From Rhodospirillaceae bacterium (lineage in GTDB: Bacteria; Pseudomonadota; Alphaproteobacteria; GCA-2731375), in NCBI GenBank assembly GCA_018660265.1, contig JABJKS010000057.1:66506-130505 (forward strand): a stretch of DNA of 64,000 nucleotides, read 5' to 3'. The notes under the pieces are model-generated. The model searched no databases. It saw only the letters and a program-made list of their open reading frames with translations, and was not told the origin of the DNA. Position numbers and translations under genes: made by a program. This document shows, in pieces, positions 11,767 through 42,484 of this stretch. Positions within the stretch are counted from its first letter, which is position 1. Each line of letters begins with the position of its first letter.

Positions 11767-12519
11767 CTATTCAGGCCCTTCGCAGCTGAGGGCAAGATGC
11801 AGCGCCGCCGGTGAAATAACGCAACGGGCCAGATTGGCACGCCACAAATCGGCACCCTTTAAATCAGCAAAGGATAAATCTGCTTCGATAAGATTAGCCT
11901 CGGTCAGAGAGGCGGAGGACAGGTTGCTGCCTGACAAATTGGCCCGGCTCAAATCCGCGCCGGTCAGGTCCGCGCCAACCAATTTAGCACCCCGCAGCCG
12001 GGCACCGGACAGTTTCGCATTGGCCAAACTGACATGGCTTAAATCCCGGCCCTCTAGATTTACATTGGCGAGGTTTTCATCCGACAAATCCGCACGGATA
12101 CCATCACTGTCGCCCTGTAGCCATAGATGGTGGGAGGTCAACGTCCGCAACAAACGCCGATTGCGTTCGCCATTCGCTTTCTTTTGCTCTGCTTCAACGA
12201 TGTTTTTCTCGATGATGCGCGTATCAAGGGGTAATTGTGCCCGCCCCAGAACCACGCGCAACTGTCGTTGCGCATGCTTCATGTCATAAGCTTCAAGCTC
12301 ACCTGTGGTGAGATTGCCGCCCATGTGAAAGCGTACTTCGTACAAATATTCAATTAGCTTGGGTTGTTTCTGGTTAGAAGCATCAGTTTCTGCCTCGGCA
12401 GCACACAAAGCTGCCAGTTCCGCCGCGATTTCCTCGGGCGGGGCATAATTGCTGTTATGGCCGATACCAGGTTGCCATTCGGCAACCTGATCGTCAAATT
12501 CTCTACTGGTTGTGGCCAT
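11767..12519 (-). CDS. Pentapeptide-repeat protein with a ~150-aa N-terminal domain of unknown function
   Basis: The C-terminal ~100 aa are tandem A(D/N)LSG pentapeptide repeats (ADLSDENLANVNLEGRDLSHVSLANAKLSGARLRGAKLVGADLTGADLSRANLSG...). A GGAGG RBS precedes MATTSREF. GC is about 53% against about 60% in the flanks. Confidence 0.7.
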   Translation of the reverse strand: MATTSREFDDQVAEWQPGIGHNSNYAPPEEIAAELAALCAAEAETDASNQKQPKLIEYLYEVRFHMGGNLTTGELEAYDMKHAQRQLRVVLGRAQLPLDTRIIEKNIVEAEQKKANGERNRRLLRTLTSHHLWLQGDSDGIRADLSDENLANVNLEGRDLSHVSLANAKLSGARLRGAKLVGADLTGADLSRANLSGSNLSSASLTEANLIEADLSFADLKGADLWRANLARCVISPAALHLALSCEGPE

Positions 12520-12640
12520 ATAACGCGCCTCCATCTGCATATCAGGCACCGAAAGCCCGTCTGAATGCTCAAAATATGCTTCACATTATGACTACGAACC
12601 ATAGTTTCATCATATTAACAAAGGCTTAGTTTGGACCGGG

Positions 12641-26326: not shown

Positions 26327-28276
26327 ATGCTATTTAGCATAAAAAAATTTTCGGTAGAATCCGTGGCAGACAACACTAACTTGGACATTTTGGCAGACAG
26401 TTTCGAAGGCCTTGAAATTGGCCTGGTGACCCTGGATTCCGATATGCATATACTGAGTGCAAACAAAAAACTCCAAGAAATCCTGGAAATTCCGCCAAAC
26501 ATTCTGCAAACGTCAATTGATTTTACGGAAGTTGTTGAATTTGTCCATACGCGTGGGGACTTTGCCACAGCCGGCATTGAAGTCACCGTTAATAAGTTGA
26601 TGGAAGGACTTCGCTGTCGGCAGCTACGCAGCCATGAATACGATACGGCTGATGGTGGACATATCCGGTGTGACATCCGACCCGTTGGAAAAGATAGCTT
26701 GATGCTCTCCTTTCAGCGCTCAGCTGTCGGGGAAGCAATTGCCAGTGCGTTAGAGGAAAGCGAAGGTCGCCTGAGTGATTTCGCGGAAGCTGGGTCTGAT
26801 TGGTTTTGGGAAATGGACGAAAACTATAAATATACTTGGTTTTCGGACAACTACGAACGAACCTACGGCATTAAGGCAGAAACAAGATATGGTAATAGCC
26901 GCCTGGACCTGATTGTTGAATGGGCAGATACCAATGGTGCCTGGCAACATCGTAAATGCCTCGAAGAACGACGCCCGTTCACCGATGTCATCTCCCGACC
27001 CAAGCTGGATGGTGGCGAAGAACGATGGATCAAGGCGTCCGGCGCACCCTTCTTTGACAGTTACGGAGAATTCCGCGGCTATCGTGGGGTTTCATCAGAT
27101 ATAACGGAAGAACTGGTACAGCGACGTCGGGTCGTTTCGGAGAATGAACGCATCGCGACGGCCATGGATCGTTTCAATGAAGCCATCGCCCTGTTCGATG
27201 ACCAGGATCGATTGATATTTTGCAACAAAGCCTTTCACGAATTGAATTCCCGGATTAGCGATATGATCGTGCCCGGCATCACATTTGAGGAAATTGTCAG
27301 GGCCAACATTGGCAAAGGCCATTTCAGCGAAATGGGCGATAAGAGCGAACAATTTGTCCAAAGCCGTCTGAGAAAATTTTATCATCCCGAAGAACCAGTC
27401 GACCTGGAACTGCACAGTGGTGTGTGGCTGCGAGTCAGCATCAAGGCCTTGGAAAATGGCGAACGGGCTGTAGTTTCCAATGATATTACCGGTTTGAAGC
27501 GCGCAGAGACGGAACTGCGCGCCGCCAAGGAGCAGGCGGAGCAAGCCAATCGGGCCAAATCAATGTTTCTGGCAAATATGAGCCACGAACTCCGCACACC
27601 CTTGAATGCGATCTCCGGCTTCTCGGAAATCATCGGGCAAGAACTGTTTGGCCCCCTGGGCAATCCCAGTTACGTCGAATACGCCACGGACATTCACGCC
27701 AGTGGTCAGCATCTGCTAGCGATCATCAATGATATCCTTGATCTGTCCAGGATCGAGGAAGGTCAGGATGAGTTGGAGGAATCAGAATCTGCCATCGATT
27801 TTGTCATCGAATCCTGTATGCCCCTAGTACGTGAACGGGCAGCGGCAGCGGAAATAACAATCACCCAAGATATCGCCACGGATCTGCCGCGGGTCATTCT
27901 GGATGTTCGTCGGATGAAGCAAATTCTTATCAACTTGCTGTCGAACGCCATCAAATTCACCGAACCCGGCGGAGAGATCGTTATCGGTGCGAAGCTTGAT
28001 GAAGCTGGAAGTATGAAACTGATGGTGCGGGATACGGGCATCGGAATAGAGCCTGAAGATATCCCCACGGCGCTGGAACCTTTTGGGCAAATTGAAAGCT
28101 CCCTCTCCCGTCGCTACGAGGGTACGGGGCTTGGCTTATCCCTGGCCAAGCAGCTTGCCGAAGCCCACAATGGTGAATTGAAAATTACCAGCGAATTGGG
28201 CGTTGGGACCAACGTGCAAATTATCCTGCCGCCGGAACGATTGGTATCAACAAAAACAATCGAGAACGAACCGTAA
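26327..28276 (+). CDS. PAS/PAC-domain sensor histidine kinase with no adjacent response regulator
   Basis: HisKA H-box SHELRTPLNAISGFSE. HATPase N, G1 and G2 boxes. Multiple PAS/PAC domains upstream. Confidence 0.85.
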   Translation: MLFSIKKFSVESVADNTNLDILADSFEGLEIGLVTLDSDMHILSANKKLQEILEIPPNILQTSIDFTEVVEFVHTRGDFATAGIEVTVNKLMEGLRCRQLRSHEYDTADGGHIRCDIRPVGKDSLMLSFQRSAVGEAIASALEESEGRLSDFAEAGSDWFWEMDENYKYTWFSDNYERTYGIKAETRYGNSRLDLIVEWADTNGAWQHRKCLEERRPFTDVISRPKLDGGEERWIKASGAPFFDSYGEFRGYRGVSSDITEELVQRRRVVSENERIATAMDRFNEAIALFDDQDRLIFCNKAFHELNSRISDMIVPGITFEEIVRANIGKGHFSEMGDKSEQFVQSRLRKFYHPEEPVDLELHSGVWLRVSIKALENGERAVVSNDITGLKRAETELRAAKEQAEQANRAKSMFLANMSHELRTPLNAISGFSEIIGQELFGPLGNPSYVEYATDIHASGQHLLAIINDILDLSRIEEGQDELEESESAIDFVIESCMPLVRERAAAAEITITQDIATDLPRVILDVRRMKQILINLLSNAIKFTEPGGEIVIGAKLDEAGSMKLMVRDTGIGIEPEDIPTALEPFGQIESSLSRRYEGTGLGLSLAKQLAEAHNGELKITSELGVGTNVQIILPPERLVSTKTIENEP

Positions 28277-38169: not shown

Positions 38170-38601
38170 ATGAGTAACCCTGAACAAGAGCGCCTGGAAA
38201 TGATGCAGGAGCGGATGCTGGGCAAAGGTTTCGGTGCCGTTTTGGGTGCCAGGATCGAGGTGCTGGAAGAAGGTTTCTGCCGCATGCTGCTGCCCTGGCG
38301 CGAGGATCTGTCCCGTGGCGATGCGATGATCCACGGCGGCGTTATATCTGCCCTGATCGACAAAGCGGGCACGACGGCGGCCTGGTCCTACAAAGACATT
38401 CCCGAAGGCACTCTGGGCTCCACCGTCGGTATGAACGTCAACTTCCTGGAAGGCGCCAAATGGGACATGATTGCAGAGGCCACGACCGTCCGGCGCGGCG
38501 GCTCCATCATTGTCATCGATGTGGACGTGAAAAGCCCTGACGGCGTCATCGTGGCCAAAGGCATGGTGACCTACAAGCAGTCGCGCCCAAAAACCAAATG
38601 A
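38170..38601 (+). CDS. PaaI-family hotdog-fold thioesterase
   Basis: 143 aa with the ...MIHGGVISALIDKAG... hotdog signature. Confidence 0.75.
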   Translation: MSNPEQERLEMMQERMLGKGFGAVLGARIEVLEEGFCRMLLPWREDLSRGDAMIHGGVISALIDKAGTTAAWSYKDIPEGTLGSTVGMNVNFLEGAKWDMIAEATTVRRGGSIIVIDVDVKSPDGVIVAKGMVTYKQSRPKTK

Positions 38602-38617
38602 GATAGGAGCCCATCCG

Positions 38618-39430
38618 ATGACCTCCGATACCGTACTCTATGACGTCGAAGACAATATCGCCACCGTGACCCTGAACCGGCCGGCGCGTTTGAACGCCCT
38701 GAATGATGAGATGATCATAGCGCTTTATGAGGTCATGCAGCGGGCCGACAAAGACCAAGATGTCCGGGTCATCATACTGACCGGCGCGGGGCGCGGCTTT
38801 TGCGCCGGTGGCGATATCCAGGGCTTCGACAATCTGGTGCCGGAACAATTGATCGTTAAAACCCCCATAGAATTCAATATGAATATCCGCGCCGACTATC
38901 AAACCCGGCACGCCTATCTGCCCAGCCTGCGTAAACCGGTCATCGGCATGGTCAACGGTGCGGCGGCGGGCCTGGGGCTGCTCTATGCCCTTGGCTGCGA
39001 TATGCGTTTTGCCGCGAATAGCGCCAAATTCACCACCGCCTTCGCCAAACGCGGCCTGGCAGCGGAATTCGGCATGTCCTGGTTGCTGCCCAAAGTCGTC
39101 GGTCACGCCAACGCCATGGACCTGCTGTTATCGGCCCGGACCATTGGCGCAGACGAGGCCAAGGAATTAGGCCTGGTCAATAAGATCTTCACGCCCGAGA
39201 CACTGCGTGACGAGACCCTGGCCTATGCCAGGGAAATGGTAAAATGGTGTTCGCCCACATCCATGCGCCACATCAAAAAACAAGCCTGGGACACACCCTT
39301 CCAGTCCCTGCAGGAAGCCGTCAGGGACGCCAACCAAATCATGCTGCAAACCAACCGCTCGGAAGATTTCACGGAGGGCACAGAGAGCTTCCGCGACAAA
39401 CGTGCGCCGAAATTTCCAGCTATTGATTAG
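38618..39430 (+). CDS. Enoyl-CoA hydratase/isomerase family protein
   Basis: VIILTGAGRGFCAGGD and MVNGAAAGLGLLYALGCD crotonase motifs. Confidence 0.85.
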   Translation: MTSDTVLYDVEDNIATVTLNRPARLNALNDEMIIALYEVMQRADKDQDVRVIILTGAGRGFCAGGDIQGFDNLVPEQLIVKTPIEFNMNIRADYQTRHAYLPSLRKPVIGMVNGAAAGLGLLYALGCDMRFAANSAKFTTAFAKRGLAAEFGMSWLLPKVVGHANAMDLLLSARTIGADEAKELGLVNKIFTPETLRDETLAYAREMVKWCSPTSMRHIKKQAWDTPFQSLQEAVRDANQIMLQTNRSEDFTEGTESFRDKRAPKFPAID

Positions 39431-39598
39431 GGCCAGTTTGTCCTGAAAGGGACTATCCACATCTGCCGCCGCAGATAGCAAAGTTAAGTGCACTGTCACA
39501 GCAATTGCAAGAATATTGAAGAAAGTAGCGGCATCAGTGACTATTTTGCCGACCCTAATTCAGCCTGGCAGCGCGGTTACAATGAAAACACCAATGGC

Positions 39599-40333
39599 TC
39601 ATTCCTCGTCTTCCTCTTGCTCGAGCTGACCGATTGACACCGAGAACGGTAGGCGGTCGCCGCCGAAACCTACAGAGTAGAAACCTTCCGGCATGGCGCT
39701 ATGATTGGAGACGTCCTTTTTGTTGTCCAAGAACTTTAGCACCCGACCGTCGGAGACGCTTGGAGACCACGTCGTGTATAGGCCATGCATGCCGTCTAGC
39801 TTTACGGAGATCATGATAGAGAAATCGGGATTTGCGCGAAGCTCGTCACGAAGCTCAGTGAATGATATTTCATCGAGATGCACTTCGAGCCAGAAATGTT
39901 CGTCCCAAGGGTTATCCATATCATCGGAGGCCGTAAAGGGAATTACTGCGACGCGCTTTCCCTCGCTCCTGTGTATCGAAATTTTTAGTGTGGTATGTGC
40001 TTGCCGAGAACCAAGAAGGGACAGCGAGTAACACCCATGCTGCGAACTCTGTATAACCCCCTGACCGCTAAATCTTTCGGTGCTTGTCTCGGCGAGCTCA
40101 TCCTTGTTGCTGTAGTCCGTTTCCAGCCCCCAGCTCCGCACGTAGGAGAGCTTTTTGCAGGCAACTTCAAGCGTTAAGAAACCCTGTCTTTCATATTCGT
40201 CCGCTTTGTTGCCTTCAGTGAAGCTCCCCGCCTTTTCGAAACCCCCTTCTGGATGGAACACGACGCCCAAACTGTTGTCCTGTTCGCCTTGCCCATCATC
40301 GTTAATTTTGCGGTTCCAAATCATATCAACCAT
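39599..40333 (-). CDS. Orphan hypothetical protein (244 aa, acidic C-terminus) in a low-GC segment
   Basis: Long ORF starting 51 bp after the thiSG stop on the same strand. GC is about 50% against about 60% in the flanks. No recognisable domain. Confidence 0.5.
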   Translation of the reverse strand: MVDMIWNRKINDDGQGEQDNSLGVVFHPEGGFEKAGSFTEGNKADEYERQGFLTLEVACKKLSYVRSWGLETDYSNKDELAETSTERFSGQGVIQSSQHGCYSLSLLGSRQAHTTLKISIHRSEGKRVAVIPFTASDDMDNPWDEHFWLEVHLDEISFTELRDELRANPDFSIMISVKLDGMHGLYTTWSPSVSDGRVLKFLDNKKDVSNHSAMPEGFYSVGFGGDRLPFSVSIGQLEQEEDEE

Positions 40334-40384
40334 CTCTATCGGTCATGTTTCTTGCAGCAATTACGGTGACAGTTTACTCAACTC

Positions 40385-41383
40385 CTAAATCAACCCCGCA
40401 AGCGGCGATGAGGGATCGGCATACATCTTCTTGGGCATGCGGCCTGCGAGATAGGCGTCCCGGCCTGCTTTGACGGCGTGGTTCATGGCGCGGGCCATGC
40501 GGATGGGGTCTTTGGCCTCGGCAATGGCTGTGTTCATGAGGACGGCGGCACAGCCCAGTTCCATGGCCACGGCTGCATCAGATGCGGTGCCGACGCCTGC
40601 ATCAACAATGACCGGCACATTGGCGTTTTCGATGATGACGCGGATGTTGACCGGGTTTTGGATGCCCAGGCCCGAACCAATGGGCGCACCCAGGGGCATG
40701 ATGGCGCAACAGCCGATCTCTTCCAGCACCTTGGCCTGGATCGGATCATCGGCGCAATAGACCATGACCTGAAAGCCCTCCTTGACCAACAGCTCCGCCG
40801 CGCGGGTGGTTTCGGGCATGTTCGGATACAGGGTTTTTTTATCGCCCAGGACCTCCAACTTGACCAGATCCCAGCCGCCGGCTTCCCGCGCCAGGCGAAG
40901 CGTCCGCACGGCGTCTTCGCCGGTGAAACAACCGGCGGTATTGGGCAGATAGATGTATTTATTGGGATCAATATGATCGACCAGCATTTCCTGACCTGGG
41001 TCCGTGACGTTGACCCGGCGGACGGCAACGGTGACCATTTCGGCCCCCGCGGCCTCTACCGCACGACGGTTTTCGTCGTAATCTTTGTATTTGCCGGTAC
41101 CGACGATTAGGCGCGAGGTCATCTTGCGTCCGGCCACGGACCAGCTGTCATCGGAAGAAACGCCGTCCGAATCGTTCTGGGCATCCCCCCCGCCGATGAA
41201 ATGCACGATTTCCAGGCGGTCCCCGTCCCCCACCATGGTCTGGTCATAGGCGGAGCGCGGCACGATCTCCAGATTATGTTCCAGGGCGATTTTACGGGCA
41301 TCCAACCCAAGGTCCGCCAACAGCGCGGTAACTGTCACGGATGAGGGTAATTCGCGGTTTTCGCCATTGATAACAACGCGCAT
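40385..41383 (-). CDS. thiG: Bifunctional sulfur-carrier protein ThiS / thiazole synthase ThiG (single fused reading frame)
   Basis: N-terminal ThiS ([12 protein letters not shown]...IVHFIGGG) continues without a stop into ThiG ([13 protein letters not shown]...). An AAGGA RBS precedes MRVV. Confidence 0.8.
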
Positions 41384-41556
41384 CGTCTCACGTTCCTTAA
41401 TAAATATTCGAGCCGTAAATGTCTTTGTAGAGAGGTCGGCGACTGCATTCAAACAGTCTGGATAAATATACTATTCAATGTCCGGCGTCACTGGCTTCCC
41501 TATCCGTTACCGTGGCAGTATATAGGCGGTAATATCCTTGTCATCGGTGAAATCCC

Positions 41557-42006
41557 ATGCCCAAAGCTATGCCGGCAAATATCCTGGTTCTGAACGGCCC
41601 CAACCTGAACATGTTGGGTCTGCGGGAGCCCGCCGTCTATGGCCACGAAACCCTTGCTGATGTTAATGCGGCCATTCAGGCGCGGGCGGATGAATTGGGT
41701 GCAGAGGTGGAATGCCGGCAAAGTAATCACGAGGGGGAGCTGGTCACCTGGATCCAGCAGGCCCGTGGTGAAAAAACTGCAATCATCATCAACGCCGGGG
41801 CTTATTCCCACACCTCCATCGCCATACCGGATGCACTGCGGGCAGCCGAAGTGCCGGTCTATGAAGTGCACCTGTCAAACATCTATCAACGGGAAAGCTT
41901 TCGCCATCATTCCTATATATCAGACCTGGCCACCGGCGTGATCTGCGGCCTGGGACTGGACGGCTACCTTTACGCCCTGAATTCAGCGGCGAAATTAAGC
42001 GACTAG
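41557..42006 (+). CDS. aroQ: Type II 3-dehydroquinate dehydratase
   Basis: ILVLNGPNLNMLGLREPAVYG N-terminal signature. Confidence 0.85.
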   Translation: MPKAMPANILVLNGPNLNMLGLREPAVYGHETLADVNAAIQARADELGAEVECRQSNHEGELVTWIQQARGEKTAIIINAGAYSHTSIAIPDALRAAEVPVYEVHLSNIYQRESFRHHSYISDLATGVICGLGLDGYLYALNSAAKLSD

Positions 42007-42028
42007 ATTTCAAGAGAGGCAAATCAGC

Positions 42029-42484
42029 ATGGCGAAACACGAGGTCGATAAGGACCTGATCCGGACATTGGCGGCCCTGATGGACGAGACGGGGTTGAGC
42101 GAGATCGAGATCGAAAATGACGATGATCGCCTGCGTCTGGTGCGCGCTACCGCCGCCGCAGCCCCTGTGGCGGTTGCGCCCATTGCGCCGATTGCCATGG
42201 CAGCAGCAGCGGCACCTGCGCCAGCGGGTGATGCGGATCTATCGAAGCATCCCGGTGCCTTGTTATCGCCCATTGTCGGCACCGCCTATCACGCCGCCAG
42301 CCCCGATGCGGCACCGTTTGTCGCCATCGGTGATCGGGTCAGCGCAGGGCAAACAGTGTTGGTGATCGAGGCTATGAAAACGTTCAACGAAATCCCATCG
42401 CCCAGTTCCGGCGTGGTCAGTCAAATTCTGTTTGATAACGCCACCCCCGTCGAATACGGCGATGTTCTGATGATTATTGAATAA
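42029..42484 (+). CDS. accB: Acetyl-CoA carboxylase biotin carboxyl carrier protein
   Basis: C-terminal biotinyl domain (VLVIEAMKTFNEIPS), with an Ala/Pro-rich linker. Confidence 0.85.
   Translation: MAKHEVDKDLIRTLAALMDETGLSEIEIENDDDRLRLVRATAAAAPVAVAPIAPIAMAAAAAPAPAGDADLSKHPGALLSPIVGTAYHAASPDAAPFVAIGDRVSAGQTVLVIEAMKTFNEIPSPSSGVVSQILFDNATPVEYGDVLMIIE

Follow-up and report, generated by a model that had tools for sequence, protein, structure and literature searches.

Which kind of gene separates the thiSG fusion gene from the convergent enoyl-CoA hydratase gene at positions 39431-40384 of the window (the whole analysed stretch of 64,000 nucleotides), how did it get there, and what might it do? 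The locus comprises the following features, listed from thiSG towards the hydratase gene; loci used for comparison carry L numbers and individual proteins P numbers.

40385..41383, minus strand: thiSG fusion gene (Pfam ThiS and ThiG), the upstream flank, 96% identical to its counterpart in L019, the closest relative
40357..40383, no strand assigned: proximal arm of a 27-nt inverted repeat, a single base away from the thiSG stop codon; reads AGTTGAGTAAACTGTCACCGTAATTGC in the direction of the gene
40325..40359, minus strand: 5' leader, about 35 nt long, carried along with the gene, as seen from nucleotide similarity to L001 and L002
39599..40324, minus strand: orphan coding sequence, 241 residues from the conserved ATG; 100% identical to P0001, which also has 241 residues
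39509..39598, minus strand: 3' non-coding spacer of 90 nt, specific for this cargo; unlike L001 past the stop codon and unlike L019
39482..39508, no strand assigned: distal arm of the 27-nt repeat; reads GCAATTGCTGTGACAGTGCACTTAACT in the direction of the gene; a copy is found at L019 5582-5608
39431..39481, no strand assigned: backbone spacer from the distal arm to the hydratase stop codon, which aligns with L019 5609-5665
38618..39430, plus strand: enoyl-CoA hydratase gene (Pfam ECH_1), the convergent downstream flank, 91% identical in L019

The preliminary description of this locus had reported an ORF of 244 residues (39599-40333, minus strand) that starts 51 nt past the thiSG stop codon (40385-40387), and this ORF is present as claimed. 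It is the longer version of the gene, with its start at 40333. As judged from sequence conservation, the ATG at 40324 (M4) is probably the true start: it is conserved in L001 and was chosen by gene callers for the identical protein P0001, and the in-frame ATG further upstream is missing in the nearest homologue locus. The gene would then encode 241 residues, and the gap to thiSG would be 60 nt. For thiSG itself, the ATG at 41383 (332 residues) is the most likely start, rather than the TTG at 41452 of the mechanical ORF list. Three further statements of the preliminary description were borne out. The acidic C-terminus reads ...LEQEEDEE. No terminator lies between thiSG and the ORF; no terminator-like hairpin was found in 39200-40700. 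There is also no partner gene nearby: the neighbours are thiSG on the upstream side and the convergent hydratase gene, and the spacer 3' of the orphan gene contains only short ORFs of 37-49 residues that are not conserved. The folding of this 3' spacer does not exceed that of shuffled sequence (z -0.14).

The low GC content that had been noted is correct in its direction, since the ORF (51.3%) lies below thiSG (58.9%) and the hydratase gene (57.2%). However, the contrast is smaller than the claimed difference between about 50% and about 60%, given a window mean of 56.0% (sd 2.9). The ORF is found at the 7th percentile among windows of the same size, and several other segments have lower values. 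Its GC3 is 0.59, compared to 0.66-0.74 in the neighbouring genes. An ORF at 1795-2343, within the lowest-GC stretch of the window, encodes a PEP-CTERM-motif protein (GC3 0.45); a pentapeptide-repeat protein (11767-12549) and a PAS histidine kinase (26327-28276, GC 0.50) are further examples. The GC dip of the orphan gene is therefore not unique in the window. Composition alone is not decisive for the question of acquisition, which was decided by the comparative evidence given below.

The orphan ORF is a real protein-coding gene. An indexed search yielded 13 homologues with identities of 52-100%, all of them unnamed, and an exhaustive HMMER search of 1.84 billion representatives yielded 77 clusters at E<=1e-3; a metagenome locus search that used a narrower alignment returned five loci. 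The identical protein occurs on at least 36 metagenomic contigs, and all eight contigs that were read share one context. Comparison with the nearest homologue in L001 (76% amino-acid identity) gave a dN/dS value of 0.18 at a dS of 0.72; at the same divergence, the values for thiSG and the hydratase gene are 0.03 and 0.07, respectively. The orphan gene is under moderate purifying selection.

An AlphaFold2 model calculated with an alignment of 58 sequences reached a pLDDT of 90.3 and a pTM of 0.84 and consists of approximately 13 strands and one helix. This confidence depends on the depth of the alignment, as the 13 close homologues alone gave a pLDDT of 30 and an unusable model. The orphan protein is thus predicted to be a mostly beta domain of about 220 residues, and every residue that is invariant in the family is present in it. 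After an acidic linker, 43 of the 79 full-length family members end in a hydrophobic helix, for example the membrane-anchored homologue P775_15070 of Puniceibacterium. The subfamily of the window is acidic and has no C-terminal helix; the orphan protein itself is soluble, with a pI of 4.7.

Neither sequence nor structure could be related to a known protein. Profile HMMs from Pfam-A, NCBIfam, PADLOC and PHROGs gave no match to the query at E<=1-10, no Pfam family was matched consistently by 58 family members, and a PADLOC search with 27 anchored members produced noise only. The family member of L111 did not match any PHROG, and a profile search of PDB sequences returned nothing. The label "YifN (PemK superfamily)" that JGI assigns to the homologue P0011 was not reproduced by any profile search. 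With the AlphaFold model as query, Foldseek detected no match at E<=1e-3 in PDB or BFVD. The family is rare and undescribed; the predicted fold appears to be without known relative among solved (PDB) and viral (BFVD) structures, and it is to these two sets that its novelty extends.

In order to trace the origin of the gene, a set of 80 genomes with close relatives of ThiSG was searched with the orphan protein by means of tblastn. The gene was found in none of the 80 thiSG-bearing relatives. In L019, the closest relative, the DNA is similar to that of the window as far as 40384 and then again from 39432, with both breakpoints at the stop codons of the flanking genes. The same slot of L019 is filled with about 2.8-2.9 kb that carry two unrelated genes on the other strand (L019:2749-5657). 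The first encodes a protein of 485 residues with no family match. The second encodes a protein of 334 residues with an N-terminal zinc ribbon and with sub-threshold matches to Nuc_deoxyrib_tr (nucleoside 2-deoxyribosyltransferase; 23.9 bits, compared to a Pfam threshold of 28.8 bits) and to TIR effectors. The latter protein is also distantly related to the AbiJ_NTD5 neighbours of the family gene in L108 and L109 (25% identity over 99 residues, E 1.7e-5). The two-gene cargo of L019 could be an uncharacterised defence pair. Within the clade of the window and L019, the interval between thiSG and the hydratase gene is a slot with exchangeable cargo. More distant relatives have a 4HBT thioesterase gene directly after thiSG, and others contain further insertions, with genes for metabolic or regulatory proteins. 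Synteny thus breaks quite generally at the 3' end of thiSG, and the slot is no hotspot dedicated to defence.

The homologues were found in 14 independent contexts. None of these contains a thi gene, no neighbour is conserved across them, and the family gene is solitary. In L003-L005, it follows repA at a distance of 4 nt; a small plasmid with this arrangement also carries a MobA/MobL relaxase gene and a PIN/PhD pair. On the small plasmid L008, it lies directly after parA and an RHH gene, and Rep3 and a resolvase are encoded as well. Toxin-antitoxin genes are located near the family gene on two plasmids. Family members are also carried by islands with integrase or resolvase genes, one of them in the cultured Puniceibacterium antarcticum. 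In two islands (L108 and L109), the family gene has a divergent Zn-ribbon/AbiJ_NTD5 neighbour, and in L105 it adjoins a ParB_N gene and a resolvase gene. On the viral contig L111 from IMG/VR, a membrane-anchored member (L111:1819-2727) is placed between neck genes (phrog_82, phrog_6367) and the tail terminator gene (phrog_4204), downstream of the major head and head-closure genes, a location typical of morons. The family gene also stands alone among housekeeping genes, in at least five chromosomal contexts. In L001, it has a TIR_2-pentapeptide protein gene and a transposase HTH fragment in its vicinity. No homologue was detected in PLSDB (72,556 plasmids) or in the GenBank phages (50,697 genomes), so that the association with mobile genetic elements rests on about ten metagenomic contexts.

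Two observations concern individual neighbours. In L001, a gene for a 527-residue protein without family match starts 43 nt past the gene of the closest non-identical homologue (76%; neighbour coordinates L001:3204-4787 and L001:4975-6162). An HTH_17-type protein adjoins the family gene in L003:1307-1744 and L006:5533-5994; the two copies are 45% identical, occur in different orientations, and represent the only recurring neighbour in the soluble subfamily, in two otherwise different plasmid-like contexts. The two RepA copies of L003 were considered as a presence/absence pair that would give the borders of a cassette; they are only 70% identical and thus belong to different replicons.

The occurrence of relatives on plasmids, genomic islands and a prophage marks the orphan gene as mobile accessory cargo. 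Together with the empty result for the 80 relatives and the different cargo between the same flanks in L019, it upholds the earlier proposal of a horizontally acquired single-gene cassette. We consider it very probable that the gene is acquired mobile cargo. The result documents a lineage-specific insertion with breakpoints that are defined to the base pair.

How the gene arrived is less clear from its borders. The nucleotide similarity to L001 and L002 (81%) extends from 40359 to 39596 and thus covers the coding sequence and the 35-nt leader. This shared DNA ends at the inner edge of the proximal arm, and the arms of the 27-nt repeat lie outside it. The two arms are complementary in 22 of 27 positions; 300 shuffles of the flanks gave a mean of 16.5 and a maximum of 19. 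L019 contains a single copy of the 27-mer, which corresponds in place and orientation to the distal arm of the window and lies some 50 nt away from the stop codon of the hydratase gene. The proximal arm matches this copy in 24 of 27 positions and hence better than its own distal partner. In both genomes, the 27-mer has the same orientation and lies just upstream of the first cargo gene. A third copy was sought without success in the window, in about 110 loci and in IMG/VR. A target-site duplication is absent; the flanks are TTAGG and TTGCT and do not form a direct repeat. The distal arm appears to be conserved backbone.

Three readings of the repeat are possible: a MIC-like cassette, an ancestral palindrome with cargo in its centre, or a reused promoter or operator. 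By definition, mobile insertion cassettes (MICs) carry passenger genes framed by IS-type inverted repeats and lack a transposase (PMC4337579). If the orphan gene had arrived as the passenger of such a non-autonomous cassette, a transposase or recombinase acting in trans would mobilise the 27-nt ends; this route would be compatible with any function of the orphan protein. The locus resembles MIC231 and the TnXax1-type MICs (PMC4337579) in its one passenger gene, the lack of a transposase and the inverted repeats of about 27 nt. The complementarity of the arms beyond the shuffle maximum, the coincidence of the outer repeat edge on the thiSG side with the breakpoint relative to L019, and the L019 copy, which borders another cargo and has the same orientation with respect to the first gene of that cargo, all speak for it. 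However, the locus has no target-site duplication, and neither a cognate IS nor any copy beyond the single one in L019 came to light, which sets it apart from these MICs; moreover, the arms are absent from the DNA shared with the closest homologue locus, and one arm is backbone-like. We therefore regard arrival by a MIC-like cassette as rather unlikely. An equally good alternative is that the convergent genes were ancestrally separated by a long palindrome and that the cargo was inserted into its centre. Two other element types were rejected by inspection. The outer ends GTTGAGT and ACTTAAC fit the GTTRRRY and RYYYAAC consensus of integron cassettes, but the complementarity extends over 27 nt on either side of the gene instead of forming a 3' attC hairpin, and no integrase gene is nearby. 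The 27-mer (AGTTRARTRMACTGTCACMGYAA) has no internal dyad of the XerC/XerD type, which speaks against a dif/pdif module.

What could the cargo do? The absence of a terminator in the 60-nt gap points to read-through, so that the orphan gene would probably be transcribed from thiSG, its likely source of transcription; the conserved 35-nt leader would supply the translation signals. The family may be a conflict module that would either exclude phages or plasmids or provide defence of the abortive-infection type. Its conserved beta domain would be the part that binds a component of the invader or of the host, and in about half of the family the C-terminal tail-anchor helix would place this domain at the inner membrane. 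The protein of the window would then be a variant without this tail, ending in an acidic stretch. This assignment of the family draws on gene neighbourhoods and predicted features, and we hold it for possible rather than probable. The same tentative grade applies to the statement as a whole, in which an acquired single-gene mobile cargo has a conflict function. It agrees with neighbours that include PIN/PhD and HigB toxin-antitoxin genes, a TIR-pentapeptide protein and AbiJ_NTD5 proteins, with the C-terminal hydrophobic helix of the anchored members, and with the TIR-like, AbiJ_NTD5-related protein in the L019 slot. Against it stand the lack of any meaningful PADLOC match for any member, the lack of a fold match that would suggest an activity, the missing membrane anchor of the window protein, the nature of the slot as a general synteny breakpoint, the empty searches of PLSDB and the GenBank phages, and the Nuc_deoxyrib_tr match of the L019 cargo, which stays below the Pfam threshold. 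A single-gene defence role, which had been among the candidates of the preliminary description, is plausible and would fit the contexts. A wider claim, which combines a single-gene anti-phage or exclusion family on mobile elements, a beta-rich fold unlike any solved one and a 27-nt repeat acting as a new recombination site that exchanges cargo, is unlikely to hold in all its parts.

These contexts also bear on other functions. The gene might encode a factor that serves the element itself, as an accessory of replication, partition, establishment or transfer, with the chromosomal copy being a stranded remnant of a plasmid or island. The positions next to repA in L003-L005 and after parA and the RHH gene in L008, the ParB_N and resolvase neighbours in L105, and the recurrence of the HTH_17 protein in L003 and L006 would all be expected from such a role. 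It is nevertheless distinctly unlikely, because plasmid maintenance makes no sense in the solitary chromosomal contexts or in a phage morphogenesis module, and an identical copy has been kept intact on the many contigs of the population. The protein could instead be an orphan of the immunity or antitoxin type that acts against a toxin from competitors or one encoded elsewhere, a candidate put forward earlier. A small, acidic, beta-rich and solitary protein that is horizontally mobile and under moderate purifying selection would suit this role, and so would the toxin-antitoxin genes nearby on two plasmids. Yet a cognate toxin gene is adjacent in none of the 14 contexts, no partner gene is conserved across them, a tail anchor in half of the family is atypical for such proteins, and the PemK-related label of P0011 lacks support from profile searches. 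The immunity candidate is weakened by these results and must be considered improbable.

The possibility that the gene is a functionless hitch-hiker, recently acquired, neutral and heading to decay, follows from the rarity of the family, the lack in this protein of the membrane anchor of many relatives, and the lack of an assignable function. It is quite improbable in view of the intact frame, the dN/dS value of 0.18, a domain that is predicted to fold with confidence and retains all family-invariant residues, and the identical sequence on many metagenomic contigs. An accessory factor of thiamine metabolism that is co-expressed with thiSG had also been considered, in the form of a thiamin-salvage protein. 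Its basis is location: the gene lies on the same strand, 60 nt past thiSG, with no terminator between. No thiSG-bearing relative among the 80 carries the gene, however, no thi gene occurs in the 14 homologue contexts, and neither a TPP riboswitch nor any other Rfam family was detected in 38500-42200 at E<=1. This role is extremely improbable and was rejected.

For the conflict function that we prefer, known systems offer partial parallels. Prophage morons can encode membrane superinfection-exclusion proteins such as gp15 of HK97, and these may be the closest analogy to the family. The tail-anchored member of L111 resembles them as an extra single gene, without a partner, between the neck and tail-terminator genes. 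In contrast to them, however, the family shows no similarity in sequence or fold to any known Sie protein, and the copy of the window is chromosomal and without a membrane helix. A further, general class consists of single proteins for abortive infection or defence that have a transmembrane effector segment. The combination of a cytoplasmic globular domain with one terminal transmembrane helix in about half of the family, the solitary gene and its carriage on mobile elements are reminiscent of this class, whereas the missing PADLOC match and the window protein without such a helix set it apart.

At the level of the locus, the comparison is with hotspots and defence islands flanked by core genes, as described for P. 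aeruginosa (PMC10250203) and E. coli (PMC10121019). As in those cases, conserved flanks enclose different cargo in sister genomes, and the L019 cargo looks defence-like. However, only two occupied states are compared here, the cargo contains no recognised defence system, and more distant relatives of the window hold metabolic genes at the site. PADLOC gave no match for the orphan ORF, and the 334-residue protein of L019 shows only the sub-threshold matches to Nuc_deoxyrib_tr and TIR.

As a single gene for about 240-300 residues with a confidently predicted fold, which is found on plasmids, islands and a prophage of marine Alphaproteobacteria, the family is a compact candidate. If it proved to encode an exclusion or defence protein, the bacterial immune repertoire would gain a new family and a new fold, and the slot between thiSG and the hydratase gene would be a bait locus for further cargo in a poorly studied lineage. 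Even if it did not, the spurious link to thiamine would have been removed.

Two observations were made on the DNA that follows thiSG in other relatives. L021 contains an ORF of 244 residues only 43 nt past thiSG (L021:7042-7776), which was considered as an orthologue and rejected: it encodes an unrelated alpha/beta hydrolase (hhalign probability 0.2). The gene next downstream of this hydrolase ORF encodes a PAS histidine kinase. The spacers between thiSG and the 4HBT gene of L023:7005-7355, L025:6985-7285 and L033:7005-7230 contain repeated GC-rich hairpin units, for example GTCATTCCCGCGAAAGCGGGAATCC. These units are similar to REP or MITE-type elements and again point to an intergenic site that gathers insertions.
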